Shown: piece by piece, positions 1 to 9,590 of the stretch
Layout: every line of letters starts with the position of its first letter
Position numbering within the stretch: the stretch's first letter is position 1
DNA from: Escherichia coli
Lineage (GTDB): Bacteria; Pseudomonadota; Gammaproteobacteria; Enterobacterales; Enterobacteriaceae
Assembly: GCF_003334255.1 (NCBI RefSeq)
Contig: NZ_QOWU01000087.1
Reading direction: 5' to 3' (one strand)
Length of the DNA: 9,590 nucleotides
Translations under genes and position numbers: made by a program
Notes under the pieces: generated by a model
What the model was told of the DNA's origin: nothing
Seen by the model: the letters and a program-made list of their open reading frames with translations, nothing else
Databases searched by the model: none

Positions 1-79
1 AGTTATCGTGAGAGTAATTCATCGGCACGTTAAATCATATCAGGCGTAATACCACAACCCTTAAGTTAGCGCTTATGGG
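1..79. repeat. Left terminal inverted repeat, 79 bp, exact reverse complement of 9512-9590
   Basis: Reverse-complementing 9512-9590 by hand reproduces bases 1-79 with no mismatch. The match breaks at position 80 (g on the left, t at 9511 on the right). Beyond that there is a weaker imperfect match (left gtaaaacccc versus the reverse complement of right gggggttttt). Confidence 0.93.
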
Positions 80-109
80 GTAAAACCCCGCGTACTGAAT
101 TGTGATGGT

Positions 110-260
110 TTGGTCTCCTGCACCCTTTTTTAATTTATATTGTTTATGTGAATATTATGCCTATGTTTATTATTCATATATATTACGGATGAAAATTATT
201 TGATTATTCATAATGTAAATATTTTATTGAATGATATATATCACAGATAATTTTTAATAT
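110..260 (+). promoter_or_regulatory. AT-rich region upstream of cas3, putative promoter and possible nucleoid-protein binding region
   Basis: A long, very AT-rich run (ttttttaatttatattgtttatgtgaatattatgcc...cacagataatttttaatat) lies directly 5' of the cas3 ATG and contains several TATAAT-like hexamers. No specific -35/-10 pair can be assigned with confidence. A regulatory role is inferred by analogy to H-NS-silenced cas promoters in Enterobacteriaceae. Confidence 0.4.
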
Positions 261-2960
261 ATGCGTAAATATCCTTTAAGTTTACTGAAGGATAAAAATA
301 TTGTGACTTTTTTTGATTTCTGGGGAAAAACCCGACGCGGCGAGAAAGACGGGGGCGACGACTATCACCTTCTTTGCTGGCATTCGCTGGATGTAGCCGC
401 GATGGGCTATTTAATGGTTAAAAGAAATTGCTTCGGGCTGGCTGATTATTTTCGTCAATTAGGGATTTCTGACAAGGAACAGGCGGCTCAATTTTTCGCC
501 TGGTTGCTGTGCTGGCACGATATTGGAAAATTTGCCCGCTCTTTTCAACAACTTTACCTGCCCCCTGAACTCAAGATTCAGGAAGGTGCCAGAAAAAATT
601 ACGAAAAAATCTCTCATTCAACGCTGGGCTACTGGTTGTGGAATCATTATTTAAGTGAATGTCAGGAGTTACTTCCTTCATCTTCGCTCTCTCCGCGCAA
701 ACTTAGGCGAGTGATAGAAATGTGGATGCCCGTGACGACAGGGCATCATGGTCGGCCCCCTGATCGTATGGATGAATTGGATAATTTTCTGCCTGAAGAC
801 AAAGCTGCAGCACGAGATTTTCTCCTTGAAATCAAACCACTGTTTCCGCTCATAGAGATCCCCGCATTCTGGGATGATGATGAGGGCATTGAACTTATAA
901 AACACCTTTCCTGGTATATCTCTGCAACCGTCGTGCTCGCAGACTGGACGGGTTCGTCAACGCGATTTTTTCCACGCGTCGCACACCCAATGGATATTAA
1001 AGGTTACTGGCAGAAAACTTTAATTCAGGCTCAAAACGCCTTAACCGTCTTTCCTCTAAAAGCAAAAGTCGCGCCTTTCAACGGAATTAATACGCTGTTT
1101 CCTTTTATTGAGAATCCGACACCGTTACAGCAAAAGGTGCTGGATCTGGATATCAGCCAGCAAGGACCGCAGTTATTTATTCTGGAAGATGTGACTGGCG
1201 CAGGTAAAACAGAAGCGGCGCTTATCCTGGCGCACAGGTTGATAGCTGCGGGGAAAGCTCAGGGGCTGTTTTTTGGTCTGCCAACAATGGCAACGGCCAA
1301 TGCCATGTACGATCGGCTGGTCAAAACCTGGCTTGCTTTCTATTCGCCAGAATCCCGCCCCAGCCTGGTGCTGGCACATAGTGCCCGCACATTAATGGAC
1401 CGCTTTAATGAATCACTCTGGTCTGGTGATTTAGTCGGGTCAGAAGAACCGGATGAACAAACGTTCAGTCAGGGATGTGCGGCCTGGTTTGCCGACAGTA
1501 ACAAGAAGGCGTTGCTGGCTGAAATTGGCGTCGGCACGCTGGATCAGGCGATGATGGCGGTGATGCCGTTCAAACATAATAATCTGCGGCTTCTGGGGCT
1601 GAGTAACAAAATCCTGCTGGCTGATGAGATCCACGCCTGTGACGCTTACATGTCGTGCATTCTTGAAGGGTTGATCGAGCGGCAGGCGCGTGGCGGAAAC
1701 AGCGTTATTTTGCTTTCTGCCACGTTATCTCAACAGCAGCGCGACAAACTCGTCGCTGCCTTTGCGCGGGGTACAGAGGGCCAGCAAGAAGCTCCGTTCC
1801 TGGAAAAGGATGATTACCCCTGGCTGACGCATGTCACGAAATCCGATGTGAACTCACACCGGGTAGCGACGCGCAAAGACGTTGAGCGTAGCGTCAGCGT
1901 GGGTTGGCTTCATAGTGAACAAGAGTGTATTGCGCGTATCGAATCGGCGGTAAGTCAGGGGAAATGCATCGCCTGGATCCGGAATTCTGTCGATGACGCT
2001 ATTAAGGTTCATCGTCAGCTGCTTGCCCGCGGCGTCATTCCTGCTTCCAGCCTTTCACTTTTTCATAGCCGCTTTGCTTTTAGCGATCGCCAGCGAATTG
2101 AAACGGAAACGCTGGCACGCTTTGGTAAATATTGTAGTTTACAGAGAGCGTCGCAAGTCATTGTTTGTACACAAGTAATTGAGCAAAGCGTGGATATTGA
2201 CCTGGACGAAATGATCTCCGACCTGGCCCCTGTTGATTTGCTGATTCAGCGAGCAGGACGATTACAGCGGCATATCCGCGATATTAATGGTCAGTTAAAG
2301 CGTGACGGAAAGGACGAGCGTTCCCCCCCTGAATTGCTGATTCTGGCTCCCGTCTGGGACGACTCTCCTGGCGACGAATGGTTTGGCAGTGCCATGCGTA
2401 ACAGTGCATTTGTCTATCCCGATCATGGGCGAATCTGGCTGACGCAGCGTGTGCTGCGTGAGCAAGGTGCTATTCAGATGCCACACGCAGCCCGGCTTCT
2501 TATTGAATCCGTCTACGGTGAGGACGTGGTAATGCCGGAAGGATTTGCCCGCAGCGAGCAGGAGCAAGTGGGCAAATATTACTGTGATCGCGCAATGGCT
2601 AAAAAGTTTGTGCTGAACTTCAGGCCCGGCTATGCCGCCAATATCAACGATTACCTCCCGGAAAAACTGTCGACACGTCTGGCTGAGGAGTCTGTTTCCC
2701 TGTGGCTGGCTACCTGTATTGACGGTGTGGTGAAGCCTTATGCCACCGGTGCTCACGCATGGGAAATGAGCGTTGTCAGAGTGCGCCGGAGCTGGTGGAA
2801 AAAACATCGGGATGAGTTTTCTTTACTGGAGGGAGAGGCGTTCAGGCTGTGGTGCATTGAACAGCGACAAGATCCGGAGATGGCAAACGTGATTTTAGTC
2901 AACGATGACGAAAGTTGCGGGTATTCGGCTACGGAAGGATTGATTGGCAAGGTTGGTTGA
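261..2960 (+). CDS. cas3: Cas3, type I HD-nuclease / SF2 helicase
   Basis: 899-aa ORF. The N-terminal HD domain shows HLLCWHSLDVA and CWHDIGK (HD motif). Helicase motifs follow: Walker A TGAGKTEAA, motif II LLADEIHACD, SAT, and motif VI QRAGRLQRH. It sits at the head of a cas operon. The start at 261 has no obvious Shine-Dalgarno, so the start codon is less certain than the stop. Confidence 0.93.
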   Translation: MRKYPLSLLKDKNIVTFFDFWGKTRRGEKDGGDDYHLLCWHSLDVAAMGYLMVKRNCFGLADYFRQLGISDKEQAAQFFAWLLCWHDIGKFARSFQQLYLPPELKIQEGARKNYEKISHSTLGYWLWNHYLSECQELLPSSSLSPRKLRRVIEMWMPVTTGHHGRPPDRMDELDNFLPEDKAAARDFLLEIKPLFPLIEIPAFWDDDEGIELIKHLSWYISATVVLADWTGSSTRFFPRVAHPMDIKGYWQKTLIQAQNALTVFPLKAKVAPFNGINTLFPFIENPTPLQQKVLDLDISQQGPQLFILEDVTGAGKTEAALILAHRLIAAGKAQGLFFGLPTMATANAMYDRLVKTWLAFYSPESRPSLVLAHSARTLMDRFNESLWSGDLVGSEEPDEQTFSQGCAAWFADSNKKALLAEIGVGTLDQAMMAVMPFKHNNLRLLGLSNKILLADEIHACDAYMSCILEGLIERQARGGNSVILLSATLSQQQRDKLVAAFARGTEGQQEAPFLEKDDYPWLTHVTKSDVNSHRVATRKDVERSVSVGWLHSEQECIARIESAVSQGKCIAWIRNSVDDAIKVHRQLLARGVIPASSLSLFHSRFAFSDRQRIETETLARFGKYCSLQRASQVIVCTQVIEQSVDIDLDEMISDLAPVDLLIQRAGRLQRHIRDINGQLKRDGKDERSPPELLILAPVWDDSPGDEWFGSAMRNSAFVYPDHGRIWLTQRVLREQGAIQMPHAARLLIESVYGEDVVMPEGFARSEQEQVGKYYCDRAMAKKFVLNFRPGYAANINDYLPEKLSTRLAEESVSLWLATCIDGVVKPYATGAHAWEMSVVRVRRSWWKKHRDEFSLLEGEAFRLWCIEQRQDPEMANVILVNDDESCGYSATEGLIGKVG

Positions 2961-3057
2961 GATGTCTGCGACAGGACTCTCTGAATAGTTGATACACCGA
3001 AAAGGATGGAAAGATGGACAACCGACCTGGGATGGTCTTTTTTACGAGAGGATGCGT

Positions 3058-4620
3058 ATGAACTCGTTTTCACTTCTGACAACCCCGTGGTTGCCCGTTC
3101 GTTTTAAAGACGGAACGACAGGCAAACTGGCGCCAGTCGATCTGGCGGATGAAAATGTTGTCGATATTTCTGCGCCGCGGGCAGATCTCCAGGGTGCGGT
3201 ATGGCAGTTTTTGCTGGGGCTACTACAAACCAGCTTCGCGCCAAAAGATCATCGTCGTTGGGATGATATCTGGGAAGACGGACTGGAAGCTGAAAAGCTA
3301 CGGGAAGCATTGCAGTCATTAGAACATGCTTTCCAGTTTGGGCCAGATTCCCCTTCATTTATGCAGGATTTCGAGGCGCTCACCGGAGATAAAGTTCCGG
3401 TCGCTTCGCTACTGCCTGAGATTCCCGGCGCTCAAACAACGAAGTTTAATAAAGACCACTTTATCAAGCGTGGTGTAACGGAATACCTGTGCCCACATTG
3501 TTCTGCGTTAGCTCTGTTCTCCCTACAGTTGAATGCGCCGTCAGGTGGCAAAGGCTACCGCACCGGTTTACGCGGCGGTGGGCCGATGACCACTCTGATT
3601 GAATTACAGGAATATCAGGGTAATCAACAAACTCCCTTGTGGCGCAAACTGTGGATCAATGTCATGCCGCAGGATGAAGCCGATTTACCGCTACCCAAAA
3701 AATTTGACGATCTGGTTTTCCCCTGGCTTGGCCCGACGCGCACCAGCGAACTGGCCGGTGCGGTGGTAACCGATGAGCAGGTCAATAAACTCCAGGCGTA
3801 CTGGGGAATGCCTCGCCGTATTCGTATTGATTTTAATACCACGACAGTCGGCAACTGCGATATTTGCGGTGAGCAGAGCGACGCGCTCCTGAGCCTGATG
3901 ACGACCAAAAATTACGGTGCGAATTATGCCATGTGGCAGCATCCCTTAACGCCTTACCGTGTACCACTTAAAGAGGGTGGCGAGTTTTACTCCGTTAAAC
4001 CACAACCGGGCGGTTTAATCTGGCGTGACTGGTTAGGCCTTATCGAAACGGGTAAATCAGAAAACAATACGGAACTTCCCGCGCTGGTGGTGAAACTCTT
4101 CAATGCCAGCAGTCTCAAGCAGGCAAAAGTGGGCCTGTGGGGATTTGGCTATGATTTCGACAACATGAAAGCGCGCTGTTGGTACGAACACCATTTCCCG
4201 CTGCTGCTCGATAAAAAAGAAGGTCAGATACCGAAGCTGCGGCTGGCTGCGCAAACAGCTTCACGGATTCTAAGTCTGTTACGGAGTGCATTGAAAGAAG
4301 CATGGTTCTCCGATCCAAAAGGTGCAAGGGGTGATTTTAGTTTTGTGGATATCGACTTCTGGAACAAAACTCAGCATCGCTTTCTGAGGTTAGTGCGCCA
4401 AATTGAAGAAGGTCAGGATGCGGATGAATTACTCAGCAAATGGAATAAGGAAATTTGGTTATTCGCACGTCAGGATTTTGACGAGCGTGTATTCACCAAT
4501 CCTTATGAGCCCGTTGATCTGGAACGCGTCATGACCGCGCGCAAGAAATATTTTACAACATCGGCGGAGAAGCAAAGTGCTAAAGCCGCCAGGGAGAAAA
4601 AGCAGGAGGCTGCTGAATGA
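3058..4620 (+). CDS. casA: Cse1/CasA, large subunit of the type I-E Cascade complex
   Basis: A large ORF immediately after cas3 and before cse2, in the conserved I-E order. I chose the ATG at 3058 (MNSFSLLTTPWLPVRF...) because GAGAGG lies 7 nt upstream as a Shine-Dalgarno. The ORF-track start at 2989 lacks one. The stop TGA at 4618-4620 overlaps the casB ATG. Confidence 0.88.
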   Translation: MNSFSLLTTPWLPVRFKDGTTGKLAPVDLADENVVDISAPRADLQGAVWQFLLGLLQTSFAPKDHRRWDDIWEDGLEAEKLREALQSLEHAFQFGPDSPSFMQDFEALTGDKVPVASLLPEIPGAQTTKFNKDHFIKRGVTEYLCPHCSALALFSLQLNAPSGGKGYRTGLRGGGPMTTLIELQEYQGNQQTPLWRKLWINVMPQDEADLPLPKKFDDLVFPWLGPTRTSELAGAVVTDEQVNKLQAYWGMPRRIRIDFNTTTVGNCDICGEQSDALLSLMTTKNYGANYAMWQHPLTPYRVPLKEGGEFYSVKPQPGGLIWRDWLGLIETGKSENNTELPALVVKLFNASSLKQAKVGLWGFGYDFDNMKARCWYEHHFPLLLDKKEGQIPKLRLAAQTASRILSLLRSALKEAWFSDPKGARGDFSFVDIDFWNKTQHRFLRLVRQIEEGQDADELLSKWNKEIWLFARQDFDERVFTNPYEPVDLERVMTARKKYFTTSAEKQSAKAAREKKQEAAE

Positions 4621-5153
4621 GTATTGTAAAAGAGGAGCACAAAGCCACGCTGCGCAAATGGCACGAGGAATTGCAGGAGAAACGTGGCGAACGTGCCAGT
4701 CTGCGGCGTAGTACGACGGTTAATGATGTTTGTCTGACGGATGGATTTCGCCTGTTTCTGAAGAACAGACAAATAAAGTGGCAGGATGAACCTGAGTGGC
4801 GTATCACCGCACTGGCGCTGATAGCCGCAGTTAGCGCCAATGTTAAAGCTATTGATGAACGGCAGCCTTTTGCCGCGCAGCTGGCGGCGGTAATGTCAAA
4901 GGGGCGTTTTACTCGTCTGTCGGCAGTAAAAACACCGGATGAATTACTGCGCCAGTTACGCCGCGCAGTCAGATTATTAAACGGTTCCGTCAATCTTGAC
5001 TCTCTGGCAGAGGGGGTCTTCCGTTGGTGCCAGGAGAGCGACGACCTGCTCAATCATCACCGCCGCCAGCAGCGGCCAACCGAATTTATCCGTATCCGCT
5101 GGGCGCTGGAATATTACCAGGCTGGCGACGCCGATAACGAACAAAATCAATAA
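4617..5153 (+). CDS. casB: Cse2/CasB, small subunit of Cascade
   Basis: 178-aa ORF in the expected position between cse1 and cas7. AGGAGG lies at 4604-4609, and the ATGA overlap with the casA stop indicates translational coupling. The assignment rests mainly on size and synteny. The sequence is not close to K-12 CasB as I recall it. Confidence 0.8.
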   Translation: MSIVKEEHKATLRKWHEELQEKRGERASLRRSTTVNDVCLTDGFRLFLKNRQIKWQDEPEWRITALALIAAVSANVKAIDERQPFAAQLAAVMSKGRFTRLSAVKTPDELLRQLRRAVRLLNGSVNLDSLAEGVFRWCQESDDLLNHHRRQQRPTEFIRIRWALEYYQAGDADNEQNQ

Positions 5154-5164
5154 AGGACTATCTC

Positions 5165-6220
5165 ATGACAACATTTATTCAGCTTCATTTGTTAACCGCT
5201 TACCCTGCTGCCAACCTTAACCGTGATGATACCGGTGCGCCAAAAACTGTGGTGCTGGGTGGAGCAACGCGTCTGCGCGTTTCCTCGCAAAGTCTGAAAC
5301 GTGCGTGGCGCACTTCTGCACTTTTTGAACAGGCACTGGCGGGCCATATTGGTATTCGCAGTGGGCGTATTGCGCGTGAGGCGGCAACTATCCTGATTGA
5401 GAAAGGAATCGAAGAGAAAAAAGCCATCGAATGGGCGGCAAAAATTGCAGATTATCTTGGGAAAGCTAAAAACGACAAAAAACCAAAAGATCCGCTCACT
5501 AACGCCGAAACTGAACAGTTAGTCCATATCAGCCCGGCAGAATTTGACGCCGTAAAAGTGCTGGCCCATCAGCTTGCAGAAGAAAAGCGCGCGCCAAAAG
5601 AGGAAGATCTCGCGTTGTTACGCAAAGACCGTATGGCGGTAGATATTGCCATGTTTGGTCGTATGCTGGCGAATAAACCCGAGTTTAATGTTGAAGCCGC
5701 CTGCCAGGTAGCGCACGCATTTGGTGTCAGTGAAACGATTGTCGAAGATGATTTTTTCACCGCCGTTGATGATTTGCGCCAGGCTTCTGAAGATGCCGGT
5801 GCCGGGCATCTTGGTGAAACCGGATTCGGTTCTGCACTGTTCTACACCTATATCTGCATTGATAAAGATCTGCTGGTCGAAAACCTTGGCGGTGACGAAG
5901 CGTTAGCTAATCAGACCATACGTGCCTTTACGGAAGCCGCACTTAAAGTCTCCCCAACCGGCAAACAGAACAGCTTTGCCAGCCGTGCCTACGCCTCCTG
6001 GGCGCTGGCAGAAAAAGGCACCGATCAACCGCGTTCTCTGGCGGCAGCTTTCTATGAACCCATTAATGGCACCCGTCAGTTAGAGGTGGCGGTGCAGCGT
6101 ATTACAACTCTTCGCGAAAATATGAATACGGTCTACGAACAGAAGACCGATTACGCAAGTTTTGACGTGATGAACAAACAGGGAAGCATGAAGGACGTGC
6201 TGGACTTTATCTGCGCGTAA
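5165..6220 (+). CDS. casC: Cas7e/CasC, Cascade backbone subunit
   Basis: 351 aa. The N-terminus (LLTAYPAANLNRDDTGAPKTVVLGGATRLRVSSQSLKRAWR) matches the conserved Cas7e N-terminal motif (..LNRDD...GG.RR.R.SSQSLKRA.R). AAAGGA lies upstream as a Shine-Dalgarno. Confidence 0.92.
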   Translation: MTTFIQLHLLTAYPAANLNRDDTGAPKTVVLGGATRLRVSSQSLKRAWRTSALFEQALAGHIGIRSGRIAREAATILIEKGIEEKKAIEWAAKIADYLGKAKNDKKPKDPLTNAETEQLVHISPAEFDAVKVLAHQLAEEKRAPKEEDLALLRKDRMAVDIAMFGRMLANKPEFNVEAACQVAHAFGVSETIVEDDFFTAVDDLRQASEDAGAGHLGETGFGSALFYTYICIDKDLLVENLGGDEALANQTIRAFTEAALKVSPTGKQNSFASRAYASWALAEKGTDQPRSLAAAFYEPINGTRQLEVAVQRITTLRENMNTVYEQKTDYASFDVMNKQGSMKDVLDFICA

Positions 6221-6230
6221 GGGGCGGCTT

Positions 6231-6977
6231 ATGAGCCAATATCTGATTTTTCAGCTTCATGGGCCGATGGCGTCCTGGGGTGTCGATGCTCCAGGTGAAG
6301 TTCGTCATACCCATGAACTTCCTTCGCGCTCAGCATTGCTGGGGCTACTGGCTGCCGGGGTAGGGATTCGGCGTGATGATACCGAACGCTTAAACGCGTT
6401 TAATCGCCACTATTCACTGGTGGTTTGCGCCAGCCGTAACCCGCGCTGGGCACGGGATTATCACACGGTCCAGATGCCAAAAGAGGTGCGTAAAGCACGT
6501 TATTTCAGCCGTCGCGAAGAGTTGAGCGACCCTGAGCTTTTGAGCGCGATTATCTCCCGGCGCGACTACTACACCGATGCCTGGTGGATGGTGGCGGTGG
6601 CAACAACCCCCGATGCGCCTTACAGCCTCGAACAGTTGCAGGACGGTTTACGCCATCCGGTTTTTCCGCTTTATCTGGGGCGAAAAAGTCATCCGCTGGC
6701 GTTACCACTTGCGCCGTTACTGCTCGAAGGCAACGCGTCTGATGTCTTACGTAACGCATACCAACAGTATCAGGATCGTTTCCGCGAACTGAAAGTCTCA
6801 CTCCCGAAACTTCAGGATGAATGCTGGTGGGAAGGGGAGCACGATGGTTTGGTCGCAAGCAAAATATTACGCCGCCGGGATGTTCCTTTAAATCGTCAGC
6901 AGTGGCTGTTTGGGGAACGCACCATCAATCAGGGGCCGTGGCTCAGCAAGGAGGAACCATGTACCTCTCAAGAATAA
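6231..6977 (+). CDS. casD: Cas5e/CasD, Cascade subunit
   Basis: 248 aa. The N-terminus (YLIFQLHGPMASWG...SALLGLLAAGVGIRRDD) closely parallels the K-12 CasD N-terminus as I recall it (YLILRLAGPMQAWG...SGLLGLLGACLGIQRDD). It sits in the correct operon position. Confidence 0.92.
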   Translation: MSQYLIFQLHGPMASWGVDAPGEVRHTHELPSRSALLGLLAAGVGIRRDDTERLNAFNRHYSLVVCASRNPRWARDYHTVQMPKEVRKARYFSRREELSDPELLSAIISRRDYYTDAWWMVAVATTPDAPYSLEQLQDGLRHPVFPLYLGRKSHPLALPLAPLLLEGNASDVLRNAYQQYQDRFRELKVSLPKLQDECWWEGEHDGLVASKILRRRDVPLNRQQWLFGERTINQGPWLSKEEPCTSQE

Positions 6978-7605
6978 CCTTACATACCGGCCAGCTTTCG
7001 CCTGCGCAGTTGCTGCATCTGGTGGATCGCGGTGAATATGTGATGCATCAGTGGTTGTGGGATCTCTTCCCTGGCGGCAAAGAAAGGCAATTTCTTTATC
7101 GTCGGGAAGAACTCCAGGGCGCGTTTCGCTTTTTTGTCCTCTCGCAGGAACGCCCGGCGGAAAGTGAAACTTTCACCATCGAATGCCGGTCATTTACGCC
7201 CGAGCTGAGTACCGGACAACAACTTTGTTTCAACCTGCGGGCGAATCCAACAATCTGTAAAGCGGGCAAGCGCCACGATCTGCTGATGGAGGCGAAACGG
7301 CAGGTGAGGGGACAGGCGGAAGGAAGTGATGTCTGGTTGCATCAACAACAGGCGGCGCTGGACTGGCTGGCAGCGCAGGGGGAAAGAAGTGGTTTTACAC
7401 TACTGGATACCTCGGTTGATGCCTACCGACAACAACAACTCCGGCGGGAAAACTCCTGGCAACTGATCCAGTTCAGTAGTGTGGATTATACGGGGATGCT
7501 TACGGTCACCGATCCTGGGTTATTTCTGCAACGTCTCAGTCAGGGGTATGGCAAAAGCCGGGCGTTCGGTTGTGGTCTGATGCTGATCAAACCTGGAGCA
7601 GAGGC

Positions 7606-7609
<4 letters not shown>
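6959..7609 (+). CDS. casE: Cas6e/CasE, pre-crRNA endoribonuclease
   Basis: I chose the internal ATG at 6959 (MYLSRITL...), which has AAGGAGG at 6948-6954. Cas6e proteins begin MYLS.., and this gives about 216 aa rather than the 262-aa track ORF. The C-terminal glycine-rich motif GYGKSRAFGCGLM is typical of Cas6e. The gene overlaps the casD 3' end by 19 bp. Confidence 0.88.
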
Positions 7610-8819
<1,210 letters not shown>

Positions 8820-8915
8820 GTTATCCGTTCTTTAAAAATAAGGAAATGTTTTAATTTAGTTGGTAGATTGTTGATGCGGAATAAATTTGTTTAAAAACAG
8901 TTATGTATGCTTAGT
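8820..8915 (+). promoter_or_regulatory. CRISPR leader, AT-rich, expected to hold the pre-crRNA promoter and integration signals
   Basis: A 96-bp AT-rich stretch between the cas2 stop and the first repeat (ttatccgttctttaaaaataaggaaatgttttaatttagttggtagattgttgatgcggaataaatttgtttaaaaacagttatgtatgcttagt). Its position and composition are typical of I-E leaders. No individual promoter or IHF site is assigned. Confidence 0.75.
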
Positions 8916-9493
8916 GTGTTCCCCGCGCCAGCGGGGATAAACCGAACATTAAATTGCCGTGCTGGATGAATCGCGGGTGTTCCCCGCGCCAGCGGGGATA
9001 AACCCTGGATCAGCTGGTTCAATCGTTTACAGCACTGGTGTTCCCCGCGCCAGCGGGGATAAACCGTCGTTCGAGGCGTTTCGCGCCTGGGCGATTATGT
9101 GTTCCCCGCGCCAGCGGGGATAAACCGTCGAAAAACTTCGTCCTGAAAAAATTCATCATGTGTTCCCCGCGCCAGCGGGGATAAACCGGCAGTAAATTAT
9201 TTGACCTCGTTGATAATCCCGTGTTCCCCGCGCCAGCGGGGATAAACCGCCGGTGCAACTGATATTGATAAACGTCGACTCGTGTTCCCCGCGCCAGCGG
9301 GGATAAACCGACACCCGACCGCTAACCGATTTCGTTACAGTAGTGTTCCCCGCGCCAGCGGGGATAAACCGACGTCTATCATTTTCAGTACAAGCTGGGT
9401 TTTGTGTTCCCCGCGCCAGCGGGGATAAACCGCCGGTGTAATCAAAGAGAAAAATCGCCTTTTTGTGTTCCCCGCGCCAGCGGGGATAAACCG
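8916..9493 (+). CRISPR. CRISPR array, 10 direct repeats of 29 bp (GTGTTCCCCGCGCCAGCGGGGATAAACCG) and 9 spacers of 32 bp
   Basis: Repeats start at 8916, 8977, 9038, 9099, 9160, 9221, 9282, 9343, 9404 and 9465, a strict 61-bp period. The repeat carries the palindromic core CCCCGCG..CGCGGGG characteristic of Enterobacteriaceae I-E repeats. Repeat 2 ends in C rather than G. The leader is on the cas2 side, so transcription is on the + strand. Confidence 0.97.
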
Positions 9494-9511
9494 AGTTAAG
9501 AGGGGGTTTTT

Positions 9512-9590
9512 CCCATAAGCGCTAACTTAAGGGTTGTGGTATTACGCCTGATATGATTTAACGTGCCGATGAATTACTCTCACGATAACT
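9512..9590. repeat. Right terminal inverted repeat, 79 bp, exact reverse complement of 1-79
   Basis: See the left copy. It begins 18 nt after the last CRISPR repeat. Confidence 0.93.

Follow-up and report, generated by a model that had tools for sequence, protein, structure and literature searches.

The stretch of DNA described here (the window) is a 9,590-nucleotide (nt) sequence from contig NZ_QOWU01000087.1 in the Escherichia coli assembly GCF_003334255.1, which carries a type I-E CRISPR-Cas locus (short palindromic repeats, clustered and regularly interspaced, and the CRISPR-associated genes) made up of eight cas genes, a leader and the proximal part of an array. The locus is enclosed by two arms that are exact reverse complements of each other in direct comparison (1-79 against 9512-9590). 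A previous reading of this DNA, made from its letters alone (the sequence-only reading), singled out these perfect 79-bp inverted repeats at the window's ends, and the repeats are real, as is the imperfect inward extension of 10-15 bp that it described; 10 of the next 15 positions inward are identical, and the pair lengthens to 94 nt at 95% identity in a repeat search. An exact inverted match of 79 nt within 9.6 kb cannot be due to chance. Very probably, the window is a native chromosomal E. coli type I-E locus lying between two full-length, inverted copies of the insertion sequence (IS) IS421/IS186, with the arms being what the window retains of the two copies.

The gene content leaves the type of the system in no doubt. 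The first gene is cas3 (261-2960, plus strand as for all the following features; 899 amino acids), preceded by a native intergenic region (88-260) that runs uninterrupted into cas3 in every related genome and is probably equivalent to IG3/IG4 in the nomenclature of Almendros et al. 2014 (mBio 5:e00767-13; PMC3903273). Downstream lie casA/cse1 (3058-4620; 520 amino acids, with coordinates taken from the RefSeq annotation of retrieved locus L002), casB/cse2 (4617-5153), cas7e/casC (5165-6220), cas5e/casD (6231-6977), cas6e/casE (6959-7609), cas1e (7606-8529), and cas2e (8526-8819). RefSeq annotation and NCBIfam models agree on these assignments, to which the called open reading frames (ORFs) add their weight for cas3, casB, cas7e, cas5e and cas2e. 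Cse1 (TIGR02547, 610 bits), Cse2, Cas7e, Cas5e, Cas6e, Cas1e, and Cas2e all score above the cut-offs of I-E models, and Cas3 is recognised through its core and HD domain models, also above cut-off. Eight cas proteins above NCBIfam cut-offs, together with 29-nt repeats and 32-nt spacers, make up the type I-E set. The window's Cas3 and CasA both fall short of the models specific to K-12, and the locus therefore represents the other, non-K-12 variant of the E. coli I-E system, which from its association with hok would be the variant called 'cas-E1' by Almendros et al. 2014.

A 96-nt stretch (8820-8915) between the stop codon of cas2 and the first repeat is the putative leader, placed by position only. 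A repeat search then delimits the leader-proximal part of the array (8916-9493), with 10 repeats (GTGTTCCCCGCGCCAGCGGGGATAAACCG) and 9 spacers of 32 nt, and this is followed by the first 20 nt (9494-9513) of another 32-nt spacer (AGTTAAGAGGGGGTTTTTCCCCACCGTTCAGG) that is interrupted by the right IS. The array is thus incomplete in the window, as complete genomes have 2-5 more spacers past the right IS. The cassette had been described as a self-contained I-E system, which is correct for its eight intact cas ORFs and its leader but not for its array, whose last spacer is cut by the right arm.

Each arm consists of the first 77 nt of IS421/IS186 followed by GG from the target motif GGGG(N6)CCCC. 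The left copy (1-77, minus strand) and the right copy (9514-9590, plus strand) are both represented by their inner, transposase-start ends and are cut by the window's edges, such that the reverse complement of 1-77 and the sequence 9514-9590 both equal IS positions 1-77. The 23-bp terminal repeat of the IS lies at 55-77 (minus strand) and 9514-9536, and each arm also includes nt 1-22 of the IS421 transposase ORF (ATGAATTACTCTCACGATAACT), at 22-1 on the minus strand (start codon at 22-20) and at 9569-9590 on the plus strand. The two IS copies are inverted, with both transposase genes directed away from the cassette. That no transposase is present, as had been stated, is literally true of the window, but the ORF begins in each arm and its remainder lies just outside. 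In complete genomes the full element is 1,339 bp long and has perfect 23-bp terminal inverted repeats (CATAAGCGCTAACTTAAGGGTTG); its 370-amino-acid transposase ORF matches NCBIfam model NF033592 (IS4 family) at 133 bits (cut-off 115), as well as PF01609, and the RefSeq annotation beneath the arm match reads 'IS4-like element IS421 family transposase'. Because both insertion sites fit GGGG(N6)CCCC, the identity of the arms extends beyond 77 nt; it is the target sites that supply the further two shared bases (78-79 and 9512-9513) and the 10 matches among the 15 inward positions.

The arm sequence is widespread. A 100-nt left-end query was found in 2,192 of the 5,426 complete E. coli genomes that were searched, at a median of 4 places per genome and a maximum of 24, and 822 of its places are on plasmids. 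The sequence-only reading had allowed that the arm might prove to be a common dispersed repeat with no link to cas loci; dispersed it is, but it also turns up repeatedly at this cas locus, since two target motifs for IS186 are available there. A 16-nt stretch near the overlap of casA and casB, at the end of casA (4419-4434), also resembles the IS arm (12-27 and 9564-9579) at 94%, most likely as a chance match.

The position of the two IS copies is best seen in complete genomes, where the order is cysH, hok, IS421, cas3 through cas2, leader, array, IS421, the rest of the array, and iap. For instance, strain ETEC4090 has cysI, cysH, hok, an IS421 on the minus strand, cas3 through cas2, the array, an IS421 on the plus strand, four more spacers, iap, and cysD, which identifies the locus as the native CRISPR-I locus between iap and cysH. 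The left IS was inserted between hok and cas3 at GGGG-GTAAAA-CCCC (site A) and has the 10-bp duplication GGGTAAAACC on both sides, the inner copy at 78-87 of the window and the outer copy at 2730-2739 of locus L001. The right IS lies within one old spacer at GGGG-GTTTTT-CCCC (site B) and is flanked on both sides by the 10-bp duplication GGGTTTTTCC, the inner copy of which (9504-9513, plus strand) falls inside the split spacer. These duplications are counted as 10 bp with the IS tip placed at CATAAG, and reduce to a 6-bp core, as in Lee et al. 2016 (Nucleic Acids Research; PMC5009759), if GG/CC on the flanks is counted as part of the element. Matched duplications, GGGTAAAACC around one IS and GGGTTTTTCC around the other, are present in all 15 native-orientation genomes whose junctions were read by script.

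Furthermore, each site is also found empty, and separately so. Site A is uninterrupted (CACGCGGGGGTAAAACCCCGCGTACTG) in four other genomes with an identical Cas3 protein (loci L007, L009, L011, and L012), and site B appears as an uncut spacer with a repeat on either side in strains such as C10, OSUCMP42NDM, and NCTC9041. Site A is occupied in 328 complete genomes in the window's orientation, and in 175 the IS there is reversed and has an identical duplication, which is the behavior described for the IS186 hot spots of Lee et al. 2016, where insertion likewise occurs in either orientation. With a separate 10-bp duplication and a separate empty site for each IS, the two copies are independent insertions at separate hot spots, and not the arrival of one bracketed unit. 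A single target-site duplication common to both outer ends, as would be expected around such a unit, is absent.

Inverted IS4-family copies around a cargo of several kilobases are well known from Tn10, with IS10, and Tn5, with IS50. On that model, the locus would be an active composite transposon, in which a 12.1-kb IS421-cas-IS421 unit moves the type I-E system by means of the outer IS ends. The locus has the inverted copies around a cargo, the intact 23-bp repeats and, in many of the genomes, a transposase that is likewise intact, and IS186 is transpositionally active in E. coli (PMC5009759). A composite transposon is nonetheless very unlikely, given that the outer flanks differ, being GGGTAAAACC at one end and GGGTTTTTCC at the opposite end, in every native-orientation genome with junctions read, and that the left and right IS have separate empty sites. 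Moreover, the inspected loci lie between cysH-hok and iap, apart from a rearranged flank in strain MLI104K2, in which hydN/hypF replaces hok on one side. The likeness to Tn10 and Tn5 is thus one of architecture only, as the IS copies here arrived separately and there is no common outer duplication, second location or plasmid copy.

No genuine plasmid in PLSDB carries the whole cassette; the only matches with at least 80% coverage are records of 4.8-4.9 Mb, which are evidently chromosomes. Nor was a second genomic location of the unit found among the inspected loci or the PLSDB plasmids, phage records not having been searched. The one true PLSDB plasmid with related cas genes is the conjugative IncHI2A plasmid pIOMTU792 (LC542972.1; L033, 5001-12326), which has the 3' part of casA, casB through cas2, an array, and iap. 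This segment is 93.7% identical to the window, has neither cas3 nor the IS421 flanks, lies about 2 kb from ISEcp1-blaCTX-M-15, and looks like a captured chromosomal fragment. On another IncHI2A plasmid (MN732922.1; L034, 2719-4799), hokE is followed by 358 nt matching the upstream region and 5' end of cas3 (window 78-436, 93.6% identity) and then by IS421.

Tn7-like CRISPR-associated transposons (CASTs) contain a nuclease-deficient CRISPR-Cas system that lacks adaptation functions and has been co-opted for targeting, along with Tn7-type ends and genes. The locus resembles them only in that a CRISPR-Cas module is placed between transposon ends, and its assignment to the CASTs was rejected, as it has the whole I-E set, including cas3, cas1, and cas2, and sits beside unrelated IS4-family elements.

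The native locus with two inverted IS421/IS186 copies leaves one feature of the window to be accounted for, namely that it is cut at mirror-image positions within both copies. Given an arbitrary cut in one copy, a second cut would fall on the precise mirror-image position with a probability of about 1 in 1,339. In the complete genomes examined, the inverted match extends past 79 nt and runs through the full 1,339-bp IS. The most likely cause of the symmetric truncation is a contig break at a multi-copy IS in a de Bruijn-graph assembly; in such an assembler, a unique edge would stop at the first k-mer that it has in common with another path. As the two copies in a genome share 79 nt (77 nt of IS plus GG), the graph overlap would be 79, corresponding to k=79 or k-1=79. 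The window-specific junction of spacer 8, repeat and spacer 9 had no match in the IMG/VR viral collection or among JGI metagenome contigs. An exact lookup of the Cas3 protein returned 11,878 collection blocks, in 3,629 of which the longest contig carrying it is 5-10 kb, a size suggestive of frequent short-read breaks at IS copies on both sides. An artefact had been one of the readings offered from the sequence, and it applies in part: the repeat is genuine, whereas its length of 79 nt and its position at the exact ends of the window would come from truncation inside the IS copies. The perfect identity over 79 bp, to which significance had been attached, is uninformative; full IS copies in one genome differ by only 0-3 nt.

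A stronger version of this argument holds that the contig is purely an assembly artefact, either chimeric or a hairpin, or with a single IS end represented on both sides, and that the source genome has no IS in its array. Ends that fall symmetrically within a multi-copy repeat are typical of graph-based contigs. However, the left junction, from the IS to the region upstream of cas3, recurs in 328 finished genomes, and the right junction, consisting of a repeat, the half spacer and the IS, is present in 23 finished genomes at 99-100% identity over 126 nt. In addition, the point at which the spacer is cut coincides with a GGGG(N6)CCCC motif, and the duplication there is the expected one; a pure artefact is highly improbable.

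It is barely credible that the cassette is an element resembling a miniature inverted-repeat transposable element (MITE), with 79-bp terminal inverted repeats on which the IS186 transposase acts in trans, or that the arms are the ends of a linear replicon, because these proposals draw on the appearance of the window only, while the inverted identity continues outward through the complete 1,339-bp IS with its transposase gene on both sides, the window's outward ends are mid-IS with the true 23-bp termini facing inward to the cassette, and all related records are circular chromosomes. The non-autonomous, trans-mobilised cassette and the linear replicon of the sequence-only reading both fall with them, the former also because its supposed termini are the inner ends of full-length autonomous IS421 copies, each with a separate target-site duplication and a separate empty site.

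Two nearly identical 1.34-kb copies, with 0-3 differences in 1,339 nt between the copies of a genome, are substrates for homologous recombination, and where they are inverted, recombination between them would flip the cas operon, the leader, and the proximal part of the array. That a locus within an inverted duplication could invert had been suggested from the window, and is borne out by the complete genomes. Of the 23 with the array-IS junction, 16 have the cassette in native orientation and 7 have it inverted, with iap adjacent to the array remainder, the IS and cas3 in that order (64EVA, 52F4, MLI104K2, G1/2, G6/7, G8, and ECCHD184). Gene order was confirmed by locus retrieval for 16 of 16 native and 5 of 7 inverted genomes, and the junction duplications were read in 15 and 5, respectively. 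In 64EVA, the order is iap, array remainder, IS, cas3 through cas2, array, IS, hok, and cysH, with the cassette inverted relative to its flanks; the left IS has a site-B half-site outside and a site-A half-site inside, and the right IS has the converse. The duplications are thus re-paired across the IS copies, as they also are in G1/2 and 52F4 and at the single IS within the retrieved ECCHD184 locus. The fifth inverted genome read, MLI104K2, has a mismatched pair of duplications and a third site on the right side. Both orientations therefore exist in complete genomes, with re-paired duplications to mark the inverted one.

Different inverted genomes carry differing subsets of spacers, suggesting that there may have been several independent flips, and both inversion and deletion presumably depend on RecA. 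The right IS421 of MLI104K2 (L031, 12611-15801) has the array half-site on its inside and an unrelated outer flank near hydN/hypF (beginning GGATTTCTCACC), which implies a further IS421-IS421 rearrangement beyond inversion of the cassette.

If the array IS were inserted in the other orientation, the two copies would form direct repeats, and recombination between them would delete the entire system, so that a single IS would remain with a half-site of each insertion beside it. A synthetic query built to that design, in which one IS connects the hok side of site A to the iap side of site B, has matches in 277 complete genomes, in some of which the match is 100% over all 3,039 nt in one piece, showing that these genomes carry the single-IS scar expected of deletion between direct copies. 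The direct pair itself persists in 2 genomes, HSP425 and AF58, with a cas operon that is already degenerate in both. A third genome, ES4, has its array IS in the direct-type orientation, but the 5' end of its cas3 has been lost to IS1. The counts, with 2 genomes for the direct pair against 277 for the deletion product and 23 for the inverted pair, fit an arrangement in which direct repeats would be unstable and inverted repeats would be a stable, flipping state. Horizontal movement and presence/absence polymorphism had both been raised as consequences of the repeats; there is no evidence of transfer as a unit, but the polymorphism does arise, through this sister arrangement with direct repeats.

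Several points weigh against the reading of the window as a native locus between inverted IS421/IS186 copies, or limit what it can say. The assembly break behind the symmetric truncation is something that we infer, and the window by itself does not tell how the cassette is oriented in its source genome. Four genomes, BS74R-D (L018), IAL7250 (L024), HSP425 (L035), and AF58 (L036), share an identical internal deletion junction from within casA to cas2 as well as similar sets of spacers, and yet their array IS421, at the equivalent of window 9504-9590, is on the plus strand in two and on the minus strand in two, with the same 10-bp duplication. Opposite orientations in such similar loci need either repeated insertion at the hot spot once the deletion had occurred, a flip of the IS in place, or exchange between strains. 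Finally, sparse long reads could have led to mis-joining of some of the 'inverted' assemblies across the 1.3-kb repeat, although this is unlikely because the seven genomes come from at least five studies.

Whether the IS421-bracketed state is more than a by-product of insertion at two hot spots is a separate matter. It could be a means of Tn10-like transposition to new replicons, or a selectable orientation switch in which the inverted repeats guard against deletion; either is distinctly unlikely. An orientation switch, if there were one, could alter the expression of cas genes or CRISPR RNAs, or collisions with replication.

The arrays of all double-IS genomes represent one shared spacer series minus differential internal losses, and the spacers of the window are a subset of it. 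Extra leader-proximal spacers occur among the double-IS genomes only in 64EVA and ET846, and the arrays of 160-11H1 and TO6 have one duplicated spacer each. This distribution suggests little recent spacer acquisition at the IS-bracketed locus. Decay of the bracketed loci is common. Strain 52F4 (L025) is without cas7, LZHX12 (L023) is without the stretch from the 3' part of casA through cas7, ECCHD184 (L013) has an IS66 element within its array, and ES4 (L032) has, besides the cas3 gene truncated by IS1, a copy of ISVsa5 in its leader. In 160-11H1 (L026, 4257-7547), one 3,291-nt ORF annotated as casA extends from the start of cas3 to the stop of casA (about 261-4620 in the window) and is apparently an in-frame cas3-casA fusion resulting from a deletion of about 1.07 kb.

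Much of this was anticipated. Almendros et al. 2014 (PMC3903273) reported IS186 at the CRISPR-I locus between iap and cysH, in their arrangements D-G and I, and placed it at the 'IG2-IG3 boundary' and within the CRISPR array, attributing the insertions to a preference of IS186 for GC-rich targets. They further proposed that recombination of two IS copies in the hypothetical arrangements AH1/AH2 removes the cas genes along with the leader and some of the array to give arrangement G. The IS, the locus and the upstream site are the same here, and their case G corresponds to the 277 scar genomes. The differences are that the two-IS intermediate, hypothetical in their scheme, is here observed (23 inverted and 2 direct pairs), that the array site is one spacer with a GGGG(N6)CCCC motif and not the repeat, and that a flipped cassette with re-paired duplications is undescribed in their paper, in which the words 'inversion' and 'inverted' do not occur. 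Lee et al. 2016 (PMC5009759) established that IS186 targets GGGG(N6/N7)CCCC with high specificity and in either orientation, and that inversions between inverted IS copies escape short reads. The rearrangements at the CRISPR-Cas locus follow the same mechanism, by which inverted copies invert and direct copies delete, and the difference is not a mechanistic one but lies in the segment, here a complete CRISPR-Cas system of 9.4 kb. Literature searches on IS421 together with CRISPR, or on inversion of the E. coli cas operon, returned nothing relevant beyond these two papers.

The system and the mechanism are therefore already known, and the arrangement was largely anticipated by Almendros et al. 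2014; the additions made here are small and incremental, namely the observed two-IS intermediates, the specific spacer that bears the motif, and the natural flipping of the version with inverted copies. One practical caution concerns short-read assemblies, in which a unique segment between inverted copies of a multi-copy IS assembles with perfect 'terminal inverted repeats' one k-mer long, and such a contig can pass for a novel mobile cassette. The locus provides no evidence for horizontal movement of the immune system as a unit. What it illustrates is how the fate of the I-E system in E. coli is governed by a pair of IS186 hot spots: the observed intermediates support the model of IS186-driven loss (Almendros et al. 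2014; PMC3903273), to which is added an inversion polymorphism that is invisible to short-read surveys.

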